Below, one piece after another: positions 3,279 to 54,786 of a DNA stretch of 64,000 nt. The notes beneath the pieces were generated by a model. That model was not told where the DNA came from. It searched no databases and saw nothing but the letters and a program-made list of their open reading frames with translations. Position numbers and translations under genes: made by a program. Position 1 is the first letter of the stretch, and every line of letters begins with the position of its first letter. The stretch is from an archaeon GW2011_AR20 (lineage in GTDB: Archaea; Nanobdellota; Nanobdellia; SCGC-AAA011-G17; GW2011-AR20), in NCBI GenBank assembly GCA_000830315.1, contig CP010426.1, positions 588,663 through 652,662 of the forward strand, in the 5' to 3' direction.

Positions 3279-4478
3279 TTATCTAAACCTTCTCCTATGA
3301 AAATCATTTCTTCTCTGTGACCTATTATCTCTTCTGAAATTTCTATTCTCGCTTCTTTCAACCCTGACCATCTGCACTTTGGGAAATTCAGGCAATTTTA
3401 ATTTTTTAACTATTAGGCTTCTGTCCTCCAAAACCCTTCTGAAATTATCATAATCTAATTCGCACAATAAAGAAATAACTTTTCCTTCATTTCCTGCCCT
3501 CGCAGTTCTTCCAATCCTGTGTATGTACTCATTTGAAGTTTTTGGAATATCATAATTAATAATATGAGTTACATTTTTAATATCCAAGCCGCGCGCAGCA
3601 ACATCGCTTGCAATCAAAACATCTGCTTTGCTGCCATGGAACATATCTATGGCCTGCTTTCTTCTGTTTTGGCTCATTCCGCCATGTAATTTTAAAGCTT
3701 TAATCCCGTTCGTGTATAAGTTTTTTGAAAGTATATCAACCATTCTTCTGGTTGCACAAAATATAATTGTTAACCCTTTTTCGTGTTTTAATAAATAAGC
3801 CAACAAAGAAAATTTATCTCTTGAAGGAACATCGTAATAATGCTGCACAAGCTTGCCTTCGTCAACATAAGACTTGACTTTTATCAACTCCGGGTTTTTC
3901 ATATAATTCTTTACAATATGGTGCACCTGGGATGAAATTGTAGCGCTAAAAAGCAGGGTTTGTCTGTTTTGCTTTAAATATGAGATTATTTTTTTTACGT
4001 CATCTATGAAGCCCATTTCAAACATTTTGTCTGCTTCATCCAAGACAAGAATATTAACCTTGTTTAAGATAATTGTTCTTCTCTGAATATGATCAAGAAT
4101 TCTTCCAGGCGTTCCGACAACGATTTCAGTATGTCTTAAACTATCTATCTGCGGATTAATTGAAACACCCCCGTAAACAGAAGTGATATTCATTTTCTTG
4201 TATTTTGAGAATTTATGCATCTCATTTGTAACCTGCACGCATAATTCCCTTGTTGGAACCAGGATTAGAACTTGAATTCCCTGCCCGTGTATTGTTTTTT
4301 CAATTATAGGAAGACCGAACACAGCAGTTTTTCCAGATCCGGTGCGGGACTGTGCAATTACGTCTTTTCCTTCCTGTATTTTTGGAATGCTTTTTTTTTG
4401 AATATCTGTCCATTCGGTAAATCCCAAATCATCTACAGCCTGGGCTATCTCCTGCTGCAAATGTATTCCTGTTATCAT
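3279..4478 (-). CDS. DEAD-box ATP-dependent RNA helicase
   Basis: Q-motif GFxxxTxIQ, Walker A SRTGSGKT, DEAD box (VLDEADKM), SAT, and HRIGRTARAG motif VI. Confidence 0.9.
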   Translation of the reverse strand: MITGIHLQQEIAQAVDDLGFTEWTDIQKKSIPKIQEGKDVIAQSRTGSGKTAVFGLPIIEKTIHGQGIQVLILVPTRELCVQVTNEMHKFSKYKKMNITSVYGGVSINPQIDSLRHTEIVVGTPGRILDHIQRRTIILNKVNILVLDEADKMFEMGFIDDVKKIISYLKQNRQTLLFSATISSQVHHIVKNYMKNPELIKVKSYVDEGKLVQHYYDVPSRDKFSLLAYLLKHEKGLTIIFCATRRMVDILSKNLYTNGIKALKLHGGMSQNRRKQAIDMFHGSKADVLIASDVAARGLDIKNVTHIINYDIPKTSNEYIHRIGRTARAGNEGKVISLLCELDYDNFRRVLEDRSLIVKKLKLPEFPKVQMVRVERSENRNFRRDNRSQRRNDFHRRRFR

Positions 4479-4516
4479 AATATAATTTCAGAAATTTGAT
4501 TTATAAAGCTTTGTTA

Positions 4517-5104
4517 TTATAATTTCTCAATATAACCTCTGCATTTTGAATTAAACAATTTTTCAAGAGTTTCAATGTCATTTTTGCAGTGTTCTTTTAT
4601 TTTTTCTAAATTATTTTCTTTCCACAGCCTTTCAACATCTTTTCCAGTAATCCCTTCATCAATAAATTCAATATTATTTAATTTGGCCAGAACTTTCAGG
4701 TTCGGATTTGTAAAAACATTCTGGGAAAATATGATCATAGTATCAAGATGATTGCTTTTAAGCATATTCCAGTGGTTTAAATTAATCTCCTTGCTTACCC
4801 TGAGGTTATTTATCATGCTTCTTATAATTATAAAAGGAATATCGAATTTGTAGCCATTATGAGTGACAATTACAGAATTGTTTGTTTTCATGAAATCCCA
4901 GAATTGAGTTAAAATCTCTTTCTCATCTCCAGTTAATAGCCTGACTTCATTATTATATTTCAATCCTATGACAATTATTCTGCTATAATGGGGATTTAAG
5001 CTTCTTGCAGCGTCAGTCAATTTTTTATCCATCAGGTATCTCATTATGAATTCGTCATTTATTTCTAATGGTACTGTTTCAATATCCAAAAACAAATATT
5101 CCAT
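4517..5104 (-). CDS. RNase H-fold 3'-5' exonuclease-like protein (DEDD type, PolB-exonuclease-like)
   Basis: The N-terminal FLDIETV acidic motif and a later HNGYKFD motif resemble DEDDy exonuclease motifs I/II. Confidence 0.5.
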   Translation of the reverse strand: MEYLFLDIETVPLEINDEFIMRYLMDKKLTDAARSLNPHYSRIIVIGLKYNNEVRLLTGDEKEILTQFWDFMKTNNSVIVTHNGYKFDIPFIIIRSMINNLRVSKEINLNHWNMLKSNHLDTMIIFSQNVFTNPNLKVLAKLNNIEFIDEGITGKDVERLWKENNLEKIKEHCKNDIETLEKLFNSKCRGYIEKL

Positions 5105-5154
5105 GGCAATATTAATCTAATAAGGTATATAAACCTTACATTATTTCCAGTTCT

Positions 5155-5544
5155 ATGGCTGATAAAACAGAGGAAGTTTGGAAAAAGAAATTAAGCAAGG
5201 AGCAATATCATGTTTTGAGGGAGAAAGGGACTGAAATGCCTTTTACAGGAAAGCTGCTTTTTAATAAAGATAAAGGGGTTTATACTTGTACAGCGTGCGG
5301 AAATGAGATTTTCTCTTCAGATGCAAAATTTGAATCAGGAACAGGCTGGCCCAGTTTCTTTCGCCCGATTTCAAAAGATGCTGTAGAAAAAAAGATAGAT
5401 GCAAGCAATGGAATTATAAGAACAGAGATAATATGCAGGAAATGCAAATCTCATCTCGGGCATGTTTTTGACGACGGTCCAAAACCAACTGGATTAAGAT
5501 ATTGCCTGAATTCTGTTTGTTTAGATTTTAAAAAGAAAAAATGA
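5155..5544 (+). CDS. msrB: Peptide-methionine (R)-S-oxide reductase MsrB
   Basis: Two CxxC pairs (CTAC..., CRKC) and the RYC active-site signature near the C-terminus (GLRYCLNS). 129 aa. Confidence 0.85.
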
Positions 5545-5639
5545 AAAATACTGAAAAAGCAGGAAAATTTTATCCTGTCGAACATCTAATCTTTTGTAAT
5601 GCTAAAAGGCATTTAAAATAATATTTATATTTCAATCCA

Positions 5640-6218
5640 CTATTTTTTATGAATTTTTCTTCTGGAGAAAGCGTGTCTTTTTTCAACGATGTAATTAAGA
5701 ACTATCGAAGCAGAAGAACTAAGATTCATGCTTTCAATAATTCCATACATGGGAATTTGGATACAGAAATCGCAGGCTTCCAAAGCTTCCTGTGACAAAC
5801 CACGTGTCTCATTGCCGAACCATATCGCCAAATGGTGTTGTGTATACTTTCCCTCAAAAAGAGGAATATTCTTTTTACCTAACGGATGTGGAGATGTTCC
5901 TACATTTATAAATTTCTTTTTAGCCAAGTGTTGCAAGCATTCAGCTGTAGAAGAAAATTTCCTTAAATATAGCCATTTGATTCCAGAGGAACTTAAGCTA
6001 ACTAATTTGGGATTATCGCGCATACTTTGCCAATTTTTTGGAAGTTTTAATCTACCCTCATCAATTAAATACACTTTGCCTACACCTAATGCTTCAGCTG
6101 TTCGAACTATTCCCATCAAATTGTTGATGAATTTAGGTTTTTCAACAACACAAACCAATGTCCTTGATCTAAAAACTGAAGCTTTGTTAGCCCTTTCTCT
6201 TAAAGTTATTCGTGACAT
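5640..6218 (-). CDS. SpoU/TrmH-family RNA 2'-O-methyltransferase
   Basis: C-terminal SpoU motifs (FGNETRGLS, IPMYG.IESMNLSSSASIVLY). GC content is noticeably higher than in neighbouring genes. Confidence 0.8.
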   Translation of the reverse strand: MSRITLRERANKASVFRSRTLVCVVEKPKFINNLMGIVRTAEALGVGKVYLIDEGRLKLPKNWQSMRDNPKLVSLSSSGIKWLYLRKFSSTAECLQHLAKKKFINVGTSPHPLGKKNIPLFEGKYTQHHLAIWFGNETRGLSQEALEACDFCIQIPMYGIIESMNLSSSASIVLNYIVEKRHAFSRRKIHKK

Positions 6219-6285
6219 TTTAATCTCCTTATAATTAATAGCTATATTATTTTATAAATATTTAGTATCTTATTAGAATAAACTA

Positions 6286-6405
6286 TGCTCCGTCCGGGAT
6301 TTGAACCCGGGTCTCGGCCTTTCTTCTCTTTGCTTTATTTTGCTGAAGCTTTTTTTTAAAACTTCCTCGAAAGGGCCGAATCCTTGGCCGCTAGACTAAC
6401 GGAGC
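6286..6405 (-). tRNA. tRNA-Glu (anticodon UUC) with an intron of about 45 nt after position 37
   Basis: Manual fold. Acceptor GCTCCGT/ACGGAGC, anticodon stem CGGCC/GGCCG, loop CTTTCG, T-arm CCGGG-TTCAAAT-CCCGG, discriminator A. Confidence 0.75.
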
Positions 6406-6409
6406 AATG

Positions 6410-6515
6410 TGGGCCTGAGCGGATTTGAACCGCCGACCACGCGTGCTCTTAGCTTACTAATGCACCTGGCATCGTCATATAAGACGCGTGCTCTACCAGG
6501 CTAAGCTACAGGCCC
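6410..6515 (-). tRNA. tRNA-Ile-like with anticodon UAU and an intron of about 32 nt
   Basis: Acceptor GGGCCTG/CAGGCCC, Ile-like D-arm GTAGCTTAGCCTGGTAGAGC, anticodon stem CGCGT/ACGCG, loop CTTATA followed by the intron. The loop nucleotides CTTA pair with TAAG at the intron 3' end, which is a canonical h' helix. It lies 4 nt from tRNA-Glu. Confidence 0.65.
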
Positions 6516-9682: not shown

Positions 9683-10066
9683 ATGGCCTTGATGCCTATC
9701 GAAATCATTGCGTTTATTTTTATTGTAGTTGCTTTGTTAAAAATAGTTGTTGTAATCTTTAATAAAAAAATCTGGTATGCCAATGTGGTTAAACCAGTGT
9801 ATGGCAATCCTGAAATAAGCACGTTTGTCTTCATTCTCTTGGTATTAATTATTTTTTATTATGTTTTGAAAGATTTAATGCTTAAGGAGGTAATTGCAGT
9901 AATTGCATTGACAAGCATTTTGATGGCACTGGGATTTTTGCAATACCAGAAAGAATTGATGCCTCTGATTAATAGGATTTATAGCAAGAATCTTACCACA
10001 TGGCAGTGGATTTATATTGTTTTTTGGGTGTTTTTGCTTATCCTGGCGCTGTATGAAATATTCTAA
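9683..10066 (+). CDS. Hypothetical membrane protein
   Basis: 127-aa ORF with 3-4 hydrophobic segments. No motif recognised. Confidence 0.4.
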   Translation: MALMPIEIIAFIFIVVALLKIVVVIFNKKIWYANVVKPVYGNPEISTFVFILLVLIIFYYVLKDLMLKEVIAVIALTSILMALGFLQYQKELMPLINRIYSKNLTTWQWIYIVFWVFLLILALYEIF

Positions 10067-10081
10067 CAATAAATTTATATA

Positions 10082-11767
10082 ATGCCCTTTCTTCGTAATT
10101 ATATGGATGCATTCAAGCAGCATATTGTAAAATTACTTAAAAAAAATACCCAAATAAATGAGGACGAAATTTCTACGTTGTTGGAGGTTCCACCAAATCC
10201 AAATTTTGGGGACTATTCTTTTCCATGTTTCCTGCTTGCACAAAATTTAAAGCAAAACCCAGTTGAAGTTGCAAGTAATTTGAGCAAGTATTTTCTTAAA
10301 GATGAATTTATTTCAAGAGTAGAGTGCAAGGGGGCTTATCTCAATTTTTTCATTAACCAGGCCAAATTAAATGAGGTTACTGTGAAAGAAATCTTAAAAC
10401 TAAAAGAAAGATACGGAAGCATGCATCTTAAAGGGAAAAGGGCATTAATAGAGCATACATCAATAAATCCGAATGCAGAACCCCATGTTGGACGGGCGAG
10501 AAACGCGTTTATCGGGGACGCAATTGTAAGATTAATAAGGTTCAATGGATATAAGACAGAGGTTCATTATTATATTAATGACATCGGAAAGCAGATAGCC
10601 ATGCTGGTTTTGGCTGCAAATGGAAAAAAGCCGAAATTTCATGAATTAATTGATTTGTACATTGAAATAAACAAAAAAATAGAGAAAAACCCAGAAATTG
10701 AAAAGAAAGTCTTTGAATTATTAAATAAGCTTGAAAAGGGAAATAAAAAAGTAAAGAAGCAGTTTAATGACATTGTTAAAATATGTGTTGAAGGACAAAA
10801 CGAAATACTAAATGATCTGGGAATTAAATACGACTTCTTTGATTACGAAAGCAAGTACTTATTCAACAAAGACTGCGAGAACTTGCTGAAGGAATTAGTT
10901 AACACAAAAAAACTATTTACAGACAATGAGCAAAGGCAGGTTCTGGATTTGCGCGAATCTTTGGGAGAAGAGCAGGGATTTTTTGTCTTAACAAGGGCAG
11001 ACGGAACCTCTTTGTATGGATTAAGGGATTTGGCTTATACAATTTACAAGATTAAAAAGGCAAAAGACAGGAATATAGTTGTTCTTGGTGAAGATCAAAA
11101 ATTATACTTTACCCAATTAAGAGCCGCATTGAAATTGTTAAATTACAGGGCGCCTGAAATTGTTCATTATTCTTTTGTTTTATTGCAGGAAGGTAAAATG
11201 TCTACAAGAAAAGGCAATGTTGTTCTATTAAGCGAATTTATGAATGAAGCAGAGAAAAAGGCCCGGGGTGAACTGGATAAAAGAAAAAACCAAGATAAGA
11301 GATTAGCCAAGATAATTGGTTATGGGGCTTTGAAATACTCAGTATTAAAAAATTCTCCTGAAAAAAACGTGATATTTGACTGGGATCAGGCTCTGACGTT
11401 TGACGGAGAAAGTTCCCCATATATACAATACTCATATGCAAGGGCAAGTTCAATATTAAAGAAAGTCAAGATGGATAAAAAGTTTAAATTTGACTTATTA
11501 AATAATAAATATGAGATTGAATTAGTTAAATTATTAAGTAATTTTCCAGGCGTGATTAATAAAGCATCGAGAGATTTAAAGCCAAATTACATTGCGAATT
11601 ATTCATATGACCTTGCCCAGAAATTCAATGAATTTTATCATAATTGTCCTGTGATTAAGGAGAGCGGAGAATTAAGGAATACAAGATTAGCTCTGGTTTT
11701 GGCCTTTACTTATGTTATTCAAACTTCTTTGAATTTACTTGGAATAGAAGCTCCTGAAAAAATGTAG
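10082..11767 (+). CDS. argS: Arginyl-tRNA synthetase
   Basis: Class I HIGH-like motif (PNAEPHVGRARNAFIGD). The length (561 aa) and C-terminal DALR-like region fit ArgRS. Confidence 0.88.
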   Translation: MPFLRNYMDAFKQHIVKLLKKNTQINEDEISTLLEVPPNPNFGDYSFPCFLLAQNLKQNPVEVASNLSKYFLKDEFISRVECKGAYLNFFINQAKLNEVTVKEILKLKERYGSMHLKGKRALIEHTSINPNAEPHVGRARNAFIGDAIVRLIRFNGYKTEVHYYINDIGKQIAMLVLAANGKKPKFHELIDLYIEINKKIEKNPEIEKKVFELLNKLEKGNKKVKKQFNDIVKICVEGQNEILNDLGIKYDFFDYESKYLFNKDCENLLKELVNTKKLFTDNEQRQVLDLRESLGEEQGFFVLTRADGTSLYGLRDLAYTIYKIKKAKDRNIVVLGEDQKLYFTQLRAALKLLNYRAPEIVHYSFVLLQEGKMSTRKGNVVLLSEFMNEAEKKARGELDKRKNQDKRLAKIIGYGALKYSVLKNSPEKNVIFDWDQALTFDGESSPYIQYSYARASSILKKVKMDKKFKFDLLNNKYEIELVKLLSNFPGVINKASRDLKPNYIANYSYDLAQKFNEFYHNCPVIKESGELRNTRLALVLAFTYVIQTSLNLLGIEAPEKM

Positions 11768-11802
11768 AAAAGTTTAAAATCATTAAAGATTATAAATAAG
11801 AT

Positions 11803-11961
11803 ATGCCAAAAATACTTGAAGGAAAATCTGTTTTATGTTCTTTTGGTATTCATAAATGGAGTAATATAAAAATGCATATGATTGAAAGTTCTAATGTATG
11901 GGATAAGGAAAAATATTGTTTAAAATGTGGTAAATATAAAAGGTGGAGTGTTCTAAGATAA
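11803..11961 (+). CDS. Small Cys/His-rich protein (52 aa), possibly zinc-binding
   Basis: Unlisted short ORF MPKILEGKSVLCSFGIHKW...CLKCGKYKRW. Its stop abuts the next gene's ATG. Confidence 0.3.
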   Translation: MPKILEGKSVLCSFGIHKWSNIKMHMIESSNVWDKEKYCLKCGKYKRWSVLR

Positions 11962-11962
11962 A

Positions 11963-13240
11963 ATGAGTATCCTCTGTGAATATAAAAGTTGTGAAAGAAT
12001 AGTAACTTTACCTCATAAATGTAAATTTTGTCATAAGATTTATTGTAGTAATCATCTATTGCCGGAAGACCATAGTTGTCAAGAATTACTAGGGATTAAA
12101 AGCACCCCTCCACTTTACAGATATCCATTGAAACCAGATGAATCAAAATCACGACAACCCAATTCAGTTAAAATAAAAAAATCCGAAATTCCAAAGAGAA
12201 TAGAAAAATTTAAGTTTTTTTTAAGATCCAATTATTACAAACTTAAAAACCTGAGTTTAAGAAGAAACCATAATAAATATTCTAATTGGGGTTCTTTTTT
12301 TATGAATGTATTGTGGTTATCCTTAATTTCTTTATTATTTGCTATATTCTATTCGAATGCAGAACAATTAAACAGCATAAAAATATTATTTGTACCTCTG
12401 GGTTTAATTTTATTAATTATTTTTGGAGTAGTATGGATAAAATTTCTATTTAAACTCTTAAAAAAGATAAAATATTGGTTTATCGGAGAACGAAATATTG
12501 TCAGATATATTGTATTAATTTTATTAATTATTCTTGCTTGGTATGGTTATGAGAATAGAGACACAATTTTTAATCCATTAATAAGTTCTTATGAATCTAT
12601 TAATTTTACTGAGATAATACCTATAGATTCGAGTATATCTGATAATGATTATAAAACAACAAATTCTAATTCAAATGAGAATATTAATCAAATAAAACAA
12701 GATGTAGAAAATATATTTAAGAACGAACCAGAAAGGAAAGAGGAATGCAAACAAGGTCTTGATTATGTTAATATAGTAAGAAAAAGTTATGGAAAAACTA
12801 CTTTAGAATGGGATGATAATTTATATGATTTAGCAGTATATCGGGCAAAAGATATGTATGATAGAAAATACTTTGATCACACAACCCCCGATGGAGAATG
12901 TACAAAAGATTTTAAAGCTCAATACGGTTTATCTGAATATAGTATTGCAGAAAATATAGGAGCACAAACTTGGAATAGTGATTATTCTATAGGAAATATT
13001 GCTTATGTAGATACTATAAATGTTAAAGAACAGATAGATATTTGGTTGAGTAGTAGGGGGCATAGATATAACCTACTTTATGATGAACATATTAAAGGAG
13101 CAATTGGTTGTTATTATGGGGTATGTGTATTTTTAGGAGCAAATATAAATCCTTACGGCTTGGGTGCTGGAGAGTGCACAACTGGAGAACAAGGTTTAGC
13201 ATATTGGCAAACAGCTGAACAAGCTCAAGGAGAAGTTTAA
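11963..13240 (+). CDS. Membrane-anchored protein with an N-terminal AN1-type zinc finger and a C-terminal CAP/SCP/PR1-like domain
   Basis: C-x4-C-x9-C-x2-C-x4-C-x2-H-x5-H-x-C at residues 5-39. Two TM helices in the middle. The C-terminus carries CAP-like motifs (GHRYNLL, HIKGAIGCYYG). Confidence 0.55.
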   Translation: MSILCEYKSCERIVTLPHKCKFCHKIYCSNHLLPEDHSCQELLGIKSTPPLYRYPLKPDESKSRQPNSVKIKKSEIPKRIEKFKFFLRSNYYKLKNLSLRRNHNKYSNWGSFFMNVLWLSLISLLFAIFYSNAEQLNSIKILFVPLGLILLIIFGVVWIKFLFKLLKKIKYWFIGERNIVRYIVLILLIILAWYGYENRDTIFNPLISSYESINFTEIIPIDSSISDNDYKTTNSNSNENINQIKQDVENIFKNEPERKEECKQGLDYVNIVRKSYGKTTLEWDDNLYDLAVYRAKDMYDRKYFDHTTPDGECTKDFKAQYGLSEYSIAENIGAQTWNSDYSIGNIAYVDTINVKEQIDIWLSSRGHRYNLLYDEHIKGAIGCYYGVCVFLGANINPYGLGAGECTTGEQGLAYWQTAEQAQGEV

Positions 13241-16242: not shown

Positions 16243-18831
16243 ATGAAAACCAAAGAGCATAAACCCGGCATGGAGTTGGTTAAAAAATATGAAAAAAGAC
16301 TTCAGTTAATAAGGGATGAGAGCTCTAAAATTATTGTCGGCCAGGAGCAGGTGATTAATTCTTTATTGCGCGCTTTATTATGCGATGGTCATGTTTTACT
16401 TGAGGGAATCCCAGGAATTGCAAAGACGTTAATCGTACGTACGTTAGCTAAAGTTACAGGATGCGATTACTCAAGAATACAGTTTACAGCTGATTTACTG
16501 CCGACAGATCTGGTTGGATTAACAACTTATATCAAGGAAAAAAATGAATTTCGGGTAAACAAGGGTCCTGTATTTGCAAATTTTGTAATAGCAGATGAAA
16601 TAAACAGGAGTCCTCCAAAATGCGTTTTAGGGGATACAGAAATTTTAACAGCGAACGGGTCTTTAATTAATATTGAGAACATATTCAGCGAATATAGGGG
16701 AGATTTAGCTTCAAGGGAAGATAATGAAGAATTTTACACCTTAAATAAAGAGATTTATATAATGTCTTTTGACCCCAAAGATAAGAAAATAAAACCTAAA
16801 AAAGTTAAATATCTTTATAGACAATTAACCAACCAGCCTTATTATGAAATTATATTAAAATCCGGCAGAAGCATTAAAACCTCGAATATACACCCTTTCT
16901 TTAGTATAAAAGACGGATATATTTATAATTTGAGGGCTAATGAGTTAAAAATTAATGATTGCGTTTTGACTCCAAAAAACATTAGATTGGAAACTAATGA
17001 TAAGATAGAGTATAACGAGGGGGTGATGAAAGAGGTTAAGGTTGCCAAAGAAGAAATTTTTAAAAGGCAGAAGCTATACAATGAAGTTCAAAAATTAAAG
17101 AATAAAAAAATAAATTATATAAAGAATACCCTCGGTTTAGATAACAAATATGCTAATCTAGCTAAGTCATACCTTAAAAGAAAACCCAAGTACATTGATA
17201 TGAAAACAGATGAAAACTCTTTTATAATGTTGCCAAAAAATTATGGTGTTATAAATAAAATTAATATGCCTTCAGAAACTAATAAAGAGCTCATGCACTT
17301 CTTTGCTTTATTGATTTCAGAGGGAAATCAAAAAAATGGAAAATTTTATTTGTCGATGAGGGATAAAAATTTAGTTGAGTATTTTATAAAATTATTAAAA
17401 GAATTATTTAATATAAATACAAGATATTACATCGACAAAAGAAATGGCCAGTATAGGGTATCCTTAAGTTCCAAGCCATTAGAGAAATTAATTTATGCAA
17501 TGAATTATAAAATTAATTCAAATGCCAAAAATAAAGATATTCCAAATTTTATCATGAAAGCGAGTAATGAAAATGTTAAGGAATTTTTAAAAATGTATTA
17601 TGAAGGTGATGGCGGTGTTAGCAGGGATTGCGTAAAAGTCACAAGCAAAAGCAAAATGGTAGCAAATAAACTTAGCTATTTATTGCTAAGATTTGGTTTA
17701 ATAGCCAGAATAAGTTATGAATACAGCAAAAACAATGAAGGGTTTGGTGATTATTATTATAACCTGAGGTTTTACGGGAATGACTTAAATCTTTTTAGAG
17801 AAAAAATGGGGTTTATTTCTGAGGATAAAAATAGCAAACTAGAACAATGCTGCGGGAATGTATCCCTAAATAAAAATGATACTATCCCATTTATCCATTC
17901 TAAAATAAGAGAATTGAGAAAAAATAATAATATTACACATAGAGAATTTTATGAAGCAACTAGAATGCATGCTCATAATATTGAAAATCCTAATAACAGA
18001 TTTGGAATAAGTAGGTATTCTCTAAATTTAATTTGTAATTCATTAAATGGTTTTGAAGAGATTAAGGAAATTATTTTGGGAGATTTTTACTGTGATTATG
18101 TTAAATCAATTAATATCATCTATCCGGAAAAAGATTATTACTTATATGACTTTACAATTGAAGATACACATTCTTTTGTAGCGGGTTTTGGAGGAATAAT
18201 TTCACATAATACCCAATCAGCTTTATTAGAGGCAATGCAGGAACGCCAGGTAACTATTGGAACTAAAACTTATCCTTTGCCTGATCCATTTTTTGTCATG
18301 GCAACTCAGAATCCCATTGAAAGCTCAGGTGTTTACCCGTTGCCAGAAGCTCAGATTGACAGGTTTTTATTCAAGACAAAAATTGTTTATCCAAAACTGA
18401 ATGAAGAAAATGAAATTCTTAAGAAAAATATAACATTGCAGAGATTTGAAGAGATTAAACTAGAGAAAGTGACAAATCAAAACGAATTGATTCAGATGCA
18501 GGACTTCGTAAAGAAGATTTACTTGAGCAAGGAAGTTGAGAATTATGTCATCAGATTAGTTGATGCTACAAGAAATCCGGGCAAATATAAGATTAATTCT
18601 GGTAAATATATTGAATGGGGTGCATCTCCAAGAGGAAGCATTGGCTTGTATATAGCGGGAAAGGCAGAAGCATTAATTCAGGGAAGCAATTTTGTTACCC
18701 CCGTTAATATTAAAACTGTTGCGCATGATGTTTTGCGCCACAGGTTATTACTGAATTATGAAGGGCAGGCTGAGAACATAAAAACAGATGATATCATAAC
18801 CGAAGTTTTGGAAAAAGTTCCTATTCCTTAA
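16243..18831 (+). CDS. MoxR-family AAA+ ATPase interrupted by a 530-aa intein
   Basis: Extein: Walker A GIPGIAKT, Walker B/sensor block ADEINRSPPK | TQSALLEAMQE. This block is contiguous in uninterrupted MoxR proteins. Confidence 0.9.
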   Translation: MKTKEHKPGMELVKKYEKRLQLIRDESSKIIVGQEQVINSLLRALLCDGHVLLEGIPGIAKTLIVRTLAKVTGCDYSRIQFTADLLPTDLVGLTTYIKEKNEFRVNKGPVFANFVIADEINRSPPKCVLGDTEILTANGSLINIENIFSEYRGDLASREDNEEFYTLNKEIYIMSFDPKDKKIKPKKVKYLYRQLTNQPYYEIILKSGRSIKTSNIHPFFSIKDGYIYNLRANELKINDCVLTPKNIRLETNDKIEYNEGVMKEVKVAKEEIFKRQKLYNEVQKLKNKKINYIKNTLGLDNKYANLAKSYLKRKPKYIDMKTDENSFIMLPKNYGVINKINMPSETNKELMHFFALLISEGNQKNGKFYLSMRDKNLVEYFIKLLKELFNINTRYYIDKRNGQYRVSLSSKPLEKLIYAMNYKINSNAKNKDIPNFIMKASNENVKEFLKMYYEGDGGVSRDCVKVTSKSKMVANKLSYLLLRFGLIARISYEYSKNNEGFGDYYYNLRFYGNDLNLFREKMGFISEDKNSKLEQCCGNVSLNKNDTIPFIHSKIRELRKNNNITHREFYEATRMHAHNIENPNNRFGISRYSLNLICNSLNGFEEIKEIILGDFYCDYVKSINIIYPEKDYYLYDFTIEDTHSFVAGFGGIISHNTQSALLEAMQERQVTIGTKTYPLPDPFFVMATQNPIESSGVYPLPEAQIDRFLFKTKIVYPKLNEENEILKKNITLQRFEEIKLEKVTNQNELIQMQDFVKKIYLSKEVENYVIRLVDATRNPGKYKINSGKYIEWGASPRGSIGLYIAGKAEALIQGSNFVTPVNIKTVAHDVLRHRLLLNYEGQAENIKTDDIITEVLEKVPIP
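16621..18210 (+). other. Intein with a LAGLIDADG homing endonuclease domain inside moxR
   Basis: Begins with Cys (CVLGDTEI), ends in SHN followed by Thr +1. Internal motifs FALLISEGN and YYEGDGG. The flanking extein sequence is seamless. Confidence 0.8.
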
Positions 18832-24295: not shown

Positions 24296-25171
24296 TTAAG
24301 CGGTTTCAATTAGCTTTTTCCTAGTTTCATAACTCTGTGCTGCTCTTTCTAAGGCATTTTTTCTTATTGAAGCTATTAAAGAGTCATTTTTAGCAATTTC
24401 TTCTAAATTCAAGCCTGAAAAATTTTTTGCGAAATGCATCCGACCAGCGCCACACGAGTCAGGCAAGATACCGCTCCCAGTAGACAGACTAGACCTATCG
24501 CGGACGAGCCCACGAAGACCGCTTCTTGTAGTATATAAATTTCTATCCCCTTCTTTATCTAATTCATATGGGAATCCTGTTTTTAACAATCCAGGGTCTT
24601 TAGAGCTGAATTTTCCGTCGCCTTTGCTTAATACAGGAACTTGAGTTACTATTGTTAATCCGTCTTTATTAAAATCTAACCTTAAGCCATATTCATAATC
24701 ATCGTCCTTGACAACATCCATTAGTCCTTCAACAACAAATGGAACTTCCAAATCTATGTTTAAAAAATAAGATTTAACCTGATCTCTAAGATGCTGCCAT
24801 GATTTTGGATTAATTGCTCTTTGCGGATAATTTGTAAATCCGGAGTCTTCATAGGTGTTATTAACATCTTCTAATTTACCTTTGCTTAAGAATAACTCGC
24901 TTATAAACTGGGTCATCGGAATAATATCTTCATTGCTTAATTCCCTAATAATATTAGACAAAGCTGTTTTATAAAAGAAATTGCAGCCTTTAATATCCCC
25001 CTGTTTAGCCTTAAAATCTAATTCTGGAATTATAACAGCTGTTCCTTGGTATCTTTCCCTAAGTAATTTCAAAGCATCCCTTGTTAAATTATAATCGTAT
25101 CTGGCTAAAAATATGGTCGGGTTTTTCTCTATTAATTCAGTCTCTAAAATGTCGTTGTACTTTGCTTTCAT
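24296..25171 (-). CDS. Uncharacterized protein, paralog A of a two-member family (the other copy is at 53920..54786)
   Basis: Clear similarity to ORF 53920..54786 (TYED.G...P...NP..W..LR.QVKS.F, PFV..GLM.VVK, G..L..KTGFP). Contains a GC-rich segment of about 100 nt near its 3' end. Confidence 0.6.
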   Translation of the reverse strand: MKAKYNDILETELIEKNPTIFLARYDYNLTRDALKLLRERYQGTAVIIPELDFKAKQGDIKGCNFFYKTALSNIIRELSNEDIIPMTQFISELFLSKGKLEDVNNTYEDSGFTNYPQRAINPKSWQHLRDQVKSYFLNIDLEVPFVVEGLMDVVKDDDYEYGLRLDFNKDGLTIVTQVPVLSKGDGKFSSKDPGLLKTGFPYELDKEGDRNLYTTRSGLRGLVRDRSSLSTGSGILPDSCGAGRMHFAKNFSGLNLEEIAKNDSLIASIRKNALERAAQSYETRKKLIETA

Positions 25172-29458: not shown

Positions 29459-29545
29459 GGGGCTATGGTCTAGCTTGGCTATGATATACGCTTAGGGACA
29501 AAAGCTGAAAAGCGTATGACCCCAGTTCAAATCTGGGTAGCCCCA
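29459..29545 (+). tRNA. Intron-containing tRNA of unresolved isotype (Val-like D-arm). Anticodon is GAA if the 13-nt intron lies after position 33, or AGG if it is canonical 37/38.
   Basis: Acceptor GGGGCTA/TAGCCCC + A. D-arm GTCT-AGCTTGGCTA-TGAT. Eight-bp continuous helix ATACGCTT/AAGCGTAT around a 15-nt loop. T-arm CCCAG-TTCAAAT-CTGGG. Confidence 0.55.
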
Positions 29546-30910: not shown

Positions 30911-31018
30911 TGCAGTAGCCGGGATTTGAACCCGGGTCGATGCCTTTTTGCTTTTGATTAAACTTTTTCTCAAAAGTTTATTGGCAAGGCACCATACTAA
31001 CCACTATACTACTACTGC
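30911..31018 (-). tRNA. tRNA-Gly (anticodon GCC) with an intron of about 36 nt
   Basis: Acceptor GCAGTAG/CTACTGC + A, anticodon stem GTGCC/GGCAT, loop TTGCCA | intron, T-arm CCGGG-TTCAAAT-CCCGG. Confidence 0.7.
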
Positions 31019-52518: not shown

Positions 52519-53130
52519 TTAAACTTCAAAATTTTTGCGCGATTCACGCACCCCGAGACCCCCATTCGAGTAAAAGGGACTCCCCCTACAGTTGAGGTAA
52601 GCCCAGTCCGAGCCAGCGACGAACCTCGCGACACGACCATCTATTGGTGAAAAATAAAAGATTTCCTTACCTCGCAATTTTGTAACTAATCCATCTTCAT
52701 TAATATGCTTAAAACTAGTCCAACCACCCATCATCAAAGGTTTAATTTCTTTGATAGAAGTTGGACTTATTTTATCATTAATAACCTTAAATCCAGATTC
52801 CATGTACCACTTTTCATCATATTTAAAAAATCTATTTCCGAAATATTCAGCCCTCCAAGGAGTCCTTCGATCAATCATTTCATCAAGTAAACCTTGTTTT
52901 TCTAAAGTGCTTACTAAACTGCCTTTTCCATCATAAGTTTTTTTTCTTGAATCTAATAAATCTCTTAAATCTAAAAAATCCCTAATCTCACACATATCTC
53001 CTTTTCTTTCAGCTAATTTTCTTATTTGTTCTTCCCAATCATGCTTGTACAGAACTCTATTTTTAGCCGAATATAAATTAGAATCCCTATCTTTTATTAA
53101 AATATAATCTGCTGGATTTATTTCTGCCAT
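52519..53130 (-). CDS. Hypothetical protein whose last roughly 40 codons are encoded by a sharply GC-rich segment (52519..52640)
   Basis: The ORF is open through the GC island. Codon usage in the tail (cgt, gtc, gcg, ggc, tcg, ctc, ggg, ccc) is alien to the rest of the genome. The tail peptide resembles the C-terminal module of the 24296/53920 paralogs. Confidence 0.45.
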   Translation of the reverse strand: MAEINPADYILIKDRDSNLYSAKNRVLYKHDWEEQIRKLAERKGDMCEIRDFLDLRDLLDSRKKTYDGKGSLVSTLEKQGLLDEMIDRRTPWRAEYFGNRFFKYDEKWYMESGFKVINDKISPTSIKEIKPLMMGGWTSFKHINEDGLVTKLRGKEIFYFSPIDGRVARFVAGSDWAYLNCRGSPFYSNGGLGVRESRKNFEV

Positions 53131-53131
53131 T

Positions 53132-53923
53132 TTACTTTAAACTTTCCCAGGTTAAATTAAACATCTGCTCTAGTGCTGAAGCAAAATAGCTTGTATCTAC
53201 CCATACTCCTGTATCATAACTTTCATGAACCTTGTCATCTTCCATCATCATGAACAGCAATTCCTTTCCATCTACAACGCAGAATCTTGCATTCACCTTG
53301 TCTATATTCCTGACATCTGCATATTTTCTTAATATTTCAACAGTATCCTTATTATCCTTTGTAATGGGGGCAGCTATTCTTACCTTAACATTCTTGAATT
53401 TCTTTAATAATGGAACCAGAATTTCAGATTTTCTCTGCAATCCTTTTGCTGTGGTCATTATTGTAACACTTTTCTGGGCTTTTCTCATCATATCCTCTAA
53501 TAAATCATAAACTTTGCTTCTTCCTTTTAATGCCCCTGATAAATCACTTGGGTCAACTTTCTTAATGCCCTGGTCATGCAATAATTGTAACTCGCGATAT
53601 AATTCTGTTTTTCTTACATCTTCAAGCATCTTAACCTGCTCTTCTGCCTTTCTTGACAATTGTGACTTAACCCTTCTAAGAATTTCCTCGGGTTTAACAG
53701 CCATATACTTTATTGGCTTTCCTAATTTCATTATGATAAAGCCTTTCTTTTCTAGACTTTCTAGAACATCATAGCTTCTTGATCTAGGAACATTGCTAAT
53801 TTCGGATAATTCTCCAGCTGCACTTACACCCCTGCTTAATAATGCCGTCCAGATTTTTACCTCATATTCATTTAAATCAAATGCGCTTCTTAATTTTTTT
53901 AAAAAATCTTCTTTGACTATCAT
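53132..53923 (-). CDS. TrmB-family transcriptional regulator
   Basis: N-terminal TrmB wHTH (LNEYEVKIWTALLSRGVSAAGELSEISNVPRSRSYDVLESLEKKGF) plus a C-terminal TrmB domain. Confidence 0.8.
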   Translation of the reverse strand: MIVKEDFLKKLRSAFDLNEYEVKIWTALLSRGVSAAGELSEISNVPRSRSYDVLESLEKKGFIIMKLGKPIKYMAVKPEEILRRVKSQLSRKAEEQVKMLEDVRKTELYRELQLLHDQGIKKVDPSDLSGALKGRSKVYDLLEDMMRKAQKSVTIMTTAKGLQRKSEILVPLLKKFKNVKVRIAAPITKDNKDTVEILRKYADVRNIDKVNARFCVVDGKELLFMMMEDDKVHESYDTGVWVDTSYFASALEQMFNLTWESLK

Positions 53924-54786
53924 ATTATTCTCCTTAACTTAATATTTCTGACTTGTTTAACAGCTAATTCATATTGTTGTTGTAATTCTTTTTCTTTTTT
54001 TAATCTTTCCTGCTCTAGTTTAGCAACTCGTTCATCGAGACTTCCACTGGAAAAATTTCGTACGACGTTCACCCTGCCATTGACATTCGAGCCAGCCAAG
54101 TTCTCGCCCCTGGCATTGAGGCTCAAGTTCCCGTACCGATAGAACCCGAAGACGCCATTATTGTTGTCTACATATAAAGTTCTGTTTCCTCTTCCTAACT
54201 TGCTTGGAAATCCTGTCTTCTGTAAACCCTTGTCACTGGAATCAAATTTGCCTGTTTTTCTATTTAAAATTGGAACATTATAAACTTCTGTTAATTCATC
54301 TGCATTTAATCCTAGACCATTTTCATAAGTTGAATTTTTAACAACATTCATTAATCCAGTTATTACAAATGGTTTGCTTAATTTAACATTAGGAAAATCA
54401 CTTTTAACCTGCTCCCTTAAGTTTTCCCATAAGTTGGGGTTAACTCCTTCTTTTGGATAAACTATTAATCCCAAATCTTCGTAAGTTGAAGTCGGATCTG
54501 TTAAAGTATCATTTGCTAAAGCAATTTCACTTTCTCTGGCGTTTATTGGATGAACATTTTCTCCTGTAATTTGTCTGTAAGCATTTACAACTGCATTTCT
54601 AAAATAAATATTGCTTCCTCTTACAGGACCTTGAGATTTGATATCTAAAGTAACTAAAGCTGCTTTTGTATCCTTATAATCTGTCAATACTTTCTTAACA
54701 GCTTCTCTTCCAGCTTCATCGTATTGCAATTGAAATATCTGAGGAACATCTACTTTAATTATCGGTTGCCCTTGTGTTGATTTCAT
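53920..54786 (-). CDS. Uncharacterized protein, paralog B of the family at 24296..25171
   Basis: Shares multiple conserved blocks with paralog A. Contains a 110-nt GC-rich segment (about 54058..54170) near its 3' end. Overlaps the trmB start. Confidence 0.6.
   Translation of the reverse strand: MKSTQGQPIIKVDVPQIFQLQYDEAGREAVKKVLTDYKDTKAALVTLDIKSQGPVRGSNIYFRNAVVNAYRQITGENVHPINARESEIALANDTLTDPTSTYEDLGLIVYPKEGVNPNLWENLREQVKSDFPNVKLSKPFVITGLMNVVKNSTYENGLGLNADELTEVYNVPILNRKTGKFDSSDKGLQKTGFPSKLGRGNRTLYVDNNNGVFGFYRYGNLSLNARGENLAGSNVNGRVNVVRNFSSGSLDERVAKLEQERLKKEKELQQQYELAVKQVRNIKLRRII

Follow-up and report, generated by a model that had tools for sequence, protein, structure and literature searches.

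Two hypothetical proteins of the woesearchaeote GW2011_AR20 are very probably DGR variable proteins whose GC spikes mark their variable regions

ORF A and ORF B, two genes annotated as hypothetical in the genome of GW2011_AR20, very probably belong to a DPANN-archaeal family of variable proteins of diversity-generating retroelements (DGRs), and the GC-rich spike in each gene is then the footprint of its variable region (VR). GW2011_AR20 (Woesearchaeota, 829,411 bp) has what we take to be the first closed Woesearchaeota genome, and we analysed a 64-kb stretch of it, which is referred to below as the window. ORF A (AJF62884.1, QT11_C0001G0745) occupies positions 24296..25171 on the minus strand and encodes 291 aa, and ORF B (AJF62925.1, QT11_C0001G0789) occupies 53920..54786 on the minus strand and encodes 288 aa. 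The assignment is carried by the membership of both proteins in one family, by complete DGR cassettes in three relatives, by differences between template repeat (TR) and VR that are specific to adenine, and by the codon-position signature found in both ORF A and ORF B.

BLASTP aligned ORF A with ORF B at 41% identity over 247 aa with an E value of 8e-54, and the three motif blocks that a sequence-only reading of the window had quoted as shared were present in both proteins in this alignment. That reading had called the two paralogues a two-member family. This is correct inside the window; beyond it, however, a profile search of 1.84 billion representatives retrieved 261 clusters at 50% identity. 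Close members are rare, with 11 matches among 5.8 billion proteins. No Pfam domain was found in the family with either single proteins or profiles, nor was one found in the 261-cluster family. Sequence searches of the PDB returned nothing meaningful either, whether a single protein or one of two profiles (12 and 93 members) served as the query. The earlier statement that the family has no assignable domain thus stands for curated domains, but the family itself can be assigned to the DGR variable proteins, with the spike as the VR.

The two GC spikes described earlier are real. The 100-nt GC peaks were 57% at 24425-24524 in ORF A and 53% at 54050-54149 in ORF B, compared with a window mean of 31.7% (sd 6.4%), and the spike in each gene extends over ~85 nt with 53-59% GC in a genome of 32% GC. 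The VR of ORF A lies at 24437..24520 on the minus strand (59% GC, 14% A) and is homologous to the VR/TR pairs of two cassette-bearing loci, L001 and L006. The VR of ORF B lies at 54070..54155 on the minus strand (55% GC) and keeps several AAY (Asn) codons; its 3' end is nearly identical to the VR of the cassette-linked relative in a third locus, L017. Synonymous codon choice switches inside the spikes, where arginine is encoded by CGT, CGC, CGG or AGG, leucine by CTN or TTG and glycine by GGY or GGG, whereas AGA, TTA and GGA are used elsewhere. The tail is thus anomalous at the nucleotide level, as had been supposed. Adenine at the third codon position accounts for 6% in the spike of ORF A and 41% in the rest of the gene, and the corresponding values for ORF B are 0% and 48%. 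The same GC-rich tail was found in all nine family genes with DNA, ORF A and ORF B included, where GC reaches 51-63% in the VR but 25-33% outside it, and third-position A amounts to 0-6% in the VR compared with 41-53% elsewhere in the gene; codon usage of this segment is atypical in every lineage. We also scanned all ORFs of at least 110 aa in the window, in 19,299 windows of thirty codons, for third-position A of at most 4% combined with GC of at least 45%. Three places only were returned, namely the ORF A segment, the ORF B segment and 52537-52644, which belongs to a third gene (ORF C). In an AT-rich genome, a local loss of third-position A that coincides with a GC spike is a simple statistic that finds DGR VRs with no reverse transcriptase (RT) or TR in view.

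Complete cassettes with the order target gene, RT-16 RNA, TR and DGR reverse transcriptase were found in three independent relatives (L001, L006 and L017), the RT-16 RNA being matched by Rfam in L001 and L017 only. In L001, the target gene (10001-10852) is followed by the RT-16 RNA (10898-11046, 77.6 bits), the TR (11047-11116) and an RVT_1 gene (11183-12220). The L006 cassette consists of the target gene (4113-4970), the TR (5171-5251) and an RVT_1 gene (5279-6307). The target gene of L017 (238-1092), which is close to ORF B, is followed by RT-16 (1126-1282, 87.8 bits), the TR (1284-1351) and then the RT, which is 75% identical to that of L001. The RVT_1 genes of the relatives are located ~310-330 nt 3' of the target, and the DGR hallmark LGNLTSQ and the YVDD motif are present in the RTs of L001 and L006; both motifs can be seen in the aligned L017 RT as well.

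The differences between TR and VR fall almost entirely at TR adenines, with 7/8 in L001, 5/5 in L006 and 12/12 in L017 (24/25 in total), and the binomial P values for adenine specificity were 1e-3, 3e-3 and 2e-7, respectively. The adenines of the TRs are distributed over codon positions 1, 2 and 3 as 11/10/0 (L001), 12/12/1 (L006) and 10/9/0 (L017), and the TRs, read in the frame of the gene, show runs of AAY codons. Substitution of A by G accounts for 23 of the 24 adenine substitutions in these three TR/VR pairs. This bias is much stronger than the roughly random A-to-N change that is usually described for DGRs. Bases other than G do occur at the variable sites that distinguish two sister-lineage loci (L012 and L016) and at those of ORF C.

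The layout of these cassettes is the one that defines a DGR, in which an adenine-error-prone RT copies an invariant TR into the VR of a target gene. In this known mechanism, TR RNA is reverse-transcribed with misincorporation opposite adenines. The cDNA then takes the place of the VR, a stretch of ~85 nt close to the 3' end of the gene, and a set of surface residues is rewritten in this way. Constant residues have to be coded without adenine, and variable residues are coded by AAY-type codons that carry adenine at codon positions 1 and 2 only. In a 32% GC genome with A-rich codons, such avoidance of A would create a sharp local GC spike and a codon usage of foreign appearance, and repeated A-to-G/N replacement in the VR would raise the GC content further. 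The TRs of L001, L006 and L017 have 43-49% GC, compared with 52-66% in the VRs derived from them. The GC spike of the VR can be explained by both effects, because scaffold residues must avoid A and templated A is replaced, here mostly by G.

The homology between TR and VR ended at the same place in all three cassettes, where the VR reads ..GGGTG.. and the TR reads ..GAATG(A/G)CCTTA.., just upstream of the conserved 3' flank of the VR. The conserved GCAAAAAATTTTTC is located directly 3' of the VR. In ORF A, the flank CATTTCGCAAAAAATTTTTCAGGC (24413..24436, minus strand) encodes HFAKNFSG and is conserved in ORF A, L001, L006, L012 and L013; from this conservation, we regard it as a putative element of the IMH type for homing or target recognition. 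A conserved GC-rich hairpin downstream was not found. No small ORF that could be an Avd accessory gene lies between target and RT, and none was seen beside the RTs by Pfam labels; the genes downstream of the RT encode HSP20 in L001 and ScpB in L006. The RT-16 RNA corresponds to Rfam RF03019, and the elements of L001 and L017 (~150 nt) match the full-length model above the gathering score of 50. The counterpart in L006, at ~5000-5170, scored below it.

Two further features of these cassettes were observed. The 5' part of the RT-16 element (CCTAGCTT; TTATCTAT) is complementary, by eye, to ATAGATAAG upstream and AAGCTRGG downstream of the TR. Between loci, U-A pairs change to U-G, and the pairing suggests a structure that may enclose the TR. 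In addition, the TRs of L001 and L017 contain homologous AT-rich insertions with lengths that are multiples of three, of 24 nt at 11117-11140 in L001 (ATTTATTATAAAAATAAACGAGAT) and 21 nt at 1352-1372 in L017 (ATTTATTAATATAAACGAGAT). The insertion is flanked by CTCG...CGAG in a hairpin-like arrangement, and neither the VRs nor the L006 TR contain it. Each VR of L001 and L017 matches its own TR at the non-adenine positions on both sides of the insertion, so the insertion seems to be skipped in retrohoming, by a template jump, RNA processing or some other route. A bulge-helix-bulge intron was considered by eye for this insertion and did not fit. TR/VR indels are documented in about 7% of DGRs (PMC5758913).

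Variation within the family is concentrated in the segment that matches the spike. Among three near-identical members (P0002, P0003 and P0004), most differences fall within the ~30 residues of this segment, and the scaffold G-x-R-x-x-R...L......L..S...GRV is fixed among the three and recurs across the wider family. Comparison of L012 with L016, a sister lineage, showed ~18 differences in the 85-nt VR against 2 in the 457 nt upstream, and an N-terminal patch was variable too. A search of genome contigs for related loci returned one Woesearchaeota MAG only, SRP178908_co2_276, which carries two family paralogues (L014 and L015). Neither an RT nor a TR lies within 10 kb of one of them (L005/L014), and the other is cut by the contig end after ~125 residues. 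One protein record in nr (P0008, 399 aa), labelled "RuBisCO long chain, Form III-b [uncultured archaeon]", is a chimera, with its first ~157 residues from ORF A (99% identical) and a RuBisCO large subunit as the remainder; this is probably an assembly or annotation artefact in the public record.

The neighbours of the two genes are those reported earlier. ORF A is flanked by Mre11 (Metallophos) and Rad50 (SMC_N/AAA_23), with a gap of 91 nt to the next gene, and the stop codon of ORF B overlaps the start of a TrmB-family regulator gene (53132..53923, minus strand). PF01978 was matched on the identical TrmB gene in two other contigs (L018 and L019), and this gene is given here as context, outside the DGR target family. 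The earlier reading had stressed these contexts, and they are not conserved. Relatives lie beside Kae1 and HSP20 (L001), eRF1 and ScpB (L006), ribosomal proteins (L005), or PEP carboxylase and an aminotransferase (L007), and since these neighbourhoods are unrelated, the Mre11-Rad50 and TrmB associations are incidental for the family and uninformative about its function. Furthermore, one related genome has the order TrpRS-TrmB-ORF C without ORF B, which indicates that ORF B is an insertion into a conserved TrmB-ORF C pair.

ORF C (QT11_C0001G0787; 52519..53130, minus strand, 203 aa), the third gene returned by the A-depletion scan, is located two genes downstream of ORF B, past TrmB, and shows no sequence relationship to ORF A or ORF B. 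Its VR (~52537-52644) lies at the extreme C-terminus, and the protein ends with ...GRVARFVAGSDWAYLNCRGSPFYSNGGLGVRESRKNFEV, which is coded by a segment of 60% GC without third-position A. The nearest relatives of ORF C are 94-95% identical, and the differences are found at the C-terminal end, in and just after the GC-rich segment. The strain contig L018 showed no difference from the window over ~10.2 kb (62887-52545) except for 12 substitutions within 66 nt (52562-52627), all in the VR of ORF C. Hypervariability confined to the VR among near-identical sequences was thus clearly found in ORF C. A second ORF C paralogue is also present in L018, and its VR shares the same invariant positions. ORF C looks like a second, unrelated type of DGR target with a classical C-terminal VR. 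Because the 12 differences separate strains that are otherwise identical, retrohoming on ORF C-type targets must have been very recent in the AR20 lineage; recent retrohoming was observed for targets of this type and was not detectable for ORF A or ORF B. Right after the ORF C stop (window 52512 onward), L018 (10618-12895) diverges completely from the window and contains a 509-aa protein without a Pfam match and then the second ORF C paralogue, with the contig ending inside its VR; at this place, the window contains a 117-aa ORF and PheRS alpha.

The machinery seen in the relatives has no counterpart near ORF A and ORF B. Within the 64-kb window, a regular-expression search for RT motifs found no ORF with YxDD or GxxxSQ, repeat searches including blastn-short found no repeat (TR) of the VR of ORF A, B or C, the Rfam search found no RT-16 motif, and the conserved words of the TR flank and spacer had no copy. 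As a control, blastn-short recovered the TR in L001, L006 and L017 and gave none in the RT-less loci L005 and L007. Counted per contig, the exact protein was found 47 times for ORF A and 52 times for ORF B, compared with 48 and 54 times for the neighbours Mre11 and TrmB, respectively. The mates of ORF B in its 90%-identity cluster have an identical VR, ORF B of L018 is identical with its VR included, and no near-identical VR variant of ORF A was present in the protein collection searched. The AR20 population sampled is almost clonal, so the invariance of a VR says little on its own, but ORF C provides an internal control. Together with the lack of RT, TR and RT-16 in the window, the invariance of both VRs on ~50 contigs points to targets that are either orphaned, or remote and static. 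ORF A and ORF B would in either case have been diversified in the past, and their TR and RT would since have been lost, or they would be rarely used remote targets of an element elsewhere in the 829-kb genome. We lean towards orphaned genes with frozen VRs.

It is less probable that ORF A and ORF B are still being diversified in trans, as remote targets of a DGR that lies elsewhere in the 829-kb AR20 genome and has an RT and at least one TR. In its favour, strains with no other difference over 10.2 kb are distinguished at 12/66 VR positions of ORF C, two genes from ORF B, the sequence GCAAAAAATTTT is common to the VR 3' flanks of ORF A and ORF C, and targets more than 100 kb from the RT are documented for non-phage DGRs (PMC5758913). 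However, apart from the shared 3'-flank motif, the VRs of ORF A, B and C are unrelated in sequence, and separate TRs would thus be needed. In addition, no VR variants of ORF A or ORF B were found among ~50 contigs, whereas variants of ORF C were present (39 exact contigs, as opposed to 52-54 for its neighbours), and no AR20 protein was among the best 120 of the 6,485 relatives of the family's cassette RT. These observations speak against live remote targets; the RT count is suggestive only, since AR20 may have a more distant RT.

The structure of ORF A was modelled by AlphaFold2 with an alignment of 93 sequences, which gave a pLDDT of 90.3 and a pTM of 0.82. In the model, the globular domain (~residues 19-249) begins with a strand (19-22) and two helices (28-41 and 65-79), followed by a mixed beta region with inserts. 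The strands at 210-230 run into the VR loop, the VR covering ~residues 218-245, and a short strand (246-249), which is coded by the invariant 3' flank, precedes a 35-residue terminal helix (256-290). Foldseek ranked TaqVP first among PDB structures; this DGR variable protein of Thermus has a C-type-lectin fold of the FGE type, but the match was insignificant (E 0.38, TM 0.28). The FGE-like PvdO was third and also weak. The best matches among viral structures were phage tail-fibre and tail-collar proteins, which were weak as well (E 0.17-0.8). These weak matches would be compatible with a divergent scaffold of the C-type-lectin kind. The sequences show no evident signal peptide or transmembrane segment. 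We infer that the protein acts as a receptor that binds a ligand; its fold is probably C-type-lectin-like, and the C-terminal helix may serve oligomerisation or docking.

The family was compared with known DGR systems. Variable proteins of this class have been proposed to let small DPANN symbionts recognise their hosts or partners. AvpA and AvpA-like proteins (Nanoarchaeota and groundwater DPANN; Handa et al. 2016, PMC5006420) resemble the present family in being small, single-domain archaeal DGR proteins of ~250-290 aa, and in both the strand after the VR is coded by the invariant homing element. The VR of AvpA is internal, and 46 residues of helical extension come after it (PMC5006420); the internal VR (~218-245), the strand at 246-249 and the helix at 256-290 form a parallel here. 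AvpA-like orphans without a DGR were reported from Woesearchaeota AR3 and AR17 (PMC5006420), and DGR-less orphan homologues in Woesearchaeota are common to both families. The two families differ in VR length, which is ~28-30 codons here and 23-27 in AvpA. The AvpA chain in the PDB was matched by neither the 12-member nor the 93-member profile, regular expressions for the AvpA motifs GxxVVVYAH, HPxxxPFxG and RFxGV gave 0 matches each in the 93 aligned members, and AvpA was not among the top 50 Foldseek matches.

The FGE-type C-type-lectin DGR proteins, such as Mtd of a Bordetella phage, TvpA of Treponema and TaqVP of Thermus, are likewise DGR targets in which the VR is a variable binding surface. 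As in the present family, their TRs follow the AAY-codon design, substitutions are specific to adenine, and the VR is followed by a strand that does not vary. However, the present family has no Pfam match to FGE-sulfatase or DUF1566, and its VR is internal with a helical tail instead of being located at the extreme C-terminus. Unclassified VR groups of CPR/DPANN DGRs are reportedly also the subject of work by Paul et al. from 2017.

The unclassified VR groups of CPR/DPANN DGRs (UVR1-6 and ungrouped) described by Wu et al. 2018 (PMC5758913) resemble the present family as targets from DPANN and groundwater lineages without a recognisable domain, with cassettes in small genomes and with targets that can be non-adjacent or remote. 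The RT-16 RNA (RF03019) is a feature of the L001 and L017 cassettes and is absent from the AR20 window. DGRs are known to be abundant in DPANN archaea, Woesearchaeota included (PMC8421398, PMC5758913), and remote targets and length differences between TR and VR are documented (PMC5758913). The main text of Wu et al. makes no mention of AR20. Judged by it, the AR20 genes and the Pfam-less 261-cluster family appear not to have been catalogued as DGR targets, and the same appears to hold for the arrangement of three VRs in the window and for the contrast between active and frozen targets.

The assignment gives a mechanistic identity to two hypothetical proteins and to ORF C, which can be described as retroelement-diversified and probably ligand-binding. 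The known picture of DGR biology is unchanged by this, and no new mechanism is involved. The contrast between a varied ORF C and the frozen ORF A and ORF B within one clonal population offers a starting point for studying how DGR targets are switched off or become fixed. Tentatively, and as a possibility that we consider doubtful, the family may be a previously unclassified DGR scaffold, with no sequence link found to AvpA, Mtd or TvpA and no significant match among solved structures, of which diversified copies (ORF A, ORF B and the genes of L005 and L007) are kept as frozen, TR-less orphan receptors while ORF C, a gene of another family, is still diversified. If so, specificities made by a retroelement would become fixed and domesticated while neighbouring ORF C keeps diversifying in the same genome.

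Two other explanations of the spike were weighed, and both are very improbable. GC spikes in AT-rich archaeal genomes are usually structured RNA genes, and the other strong GC spikes in the window are indeed 5S rRNA and tRNA genes. An embedded structured non-coding RNA, or an RNA element with a frameshifting or regulatory structure, would nevertheless hardly fit the data, because the sense-strand folds of the spikes were weaker than those of shuffled controls (z +1.5 and +0.7), the anomaly is specific to codon position, and the segment varies more than any other part of the gene instead of being its best conserved part. Rfam gave no match at the gathering score for the spike segments, and a scan of the ORF A region at E<=1 gave one match, which was upstream of the VR and far below threshold. 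That the spike simply follows from the Gly/Arg/Ser/Ala content of a flexible tail, or is a patch gained by horizontal transfer, is just as improbable: the segment is abundant in Gly, Arg and Ser, but synonymous codon choice shifts sharply inside it with amino-acid content controlled, the ORF B segment is Asn-rich and still has 55% GC, and the presence of the same feature at the homologous position in all family members argues against recent transfer.

A few other features of the window were observed. Rfam detected tRNA genes of 87-120 nt at 6286-6515, 29459-29545 and 30911-31018 that were missed by ARAGORN, and their length and the missed detection imply introns; tRNA introns are common in DPANN archaea. 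The gene of a MoxR-type AAA ATPase (16243-18831, plus strand; 16341-18929 in L009) contains an intein with a LAGLIDADG endonuclease domain, and another intein-containing gene (CTP_transf_3 / beta-CASP) is present in L018.
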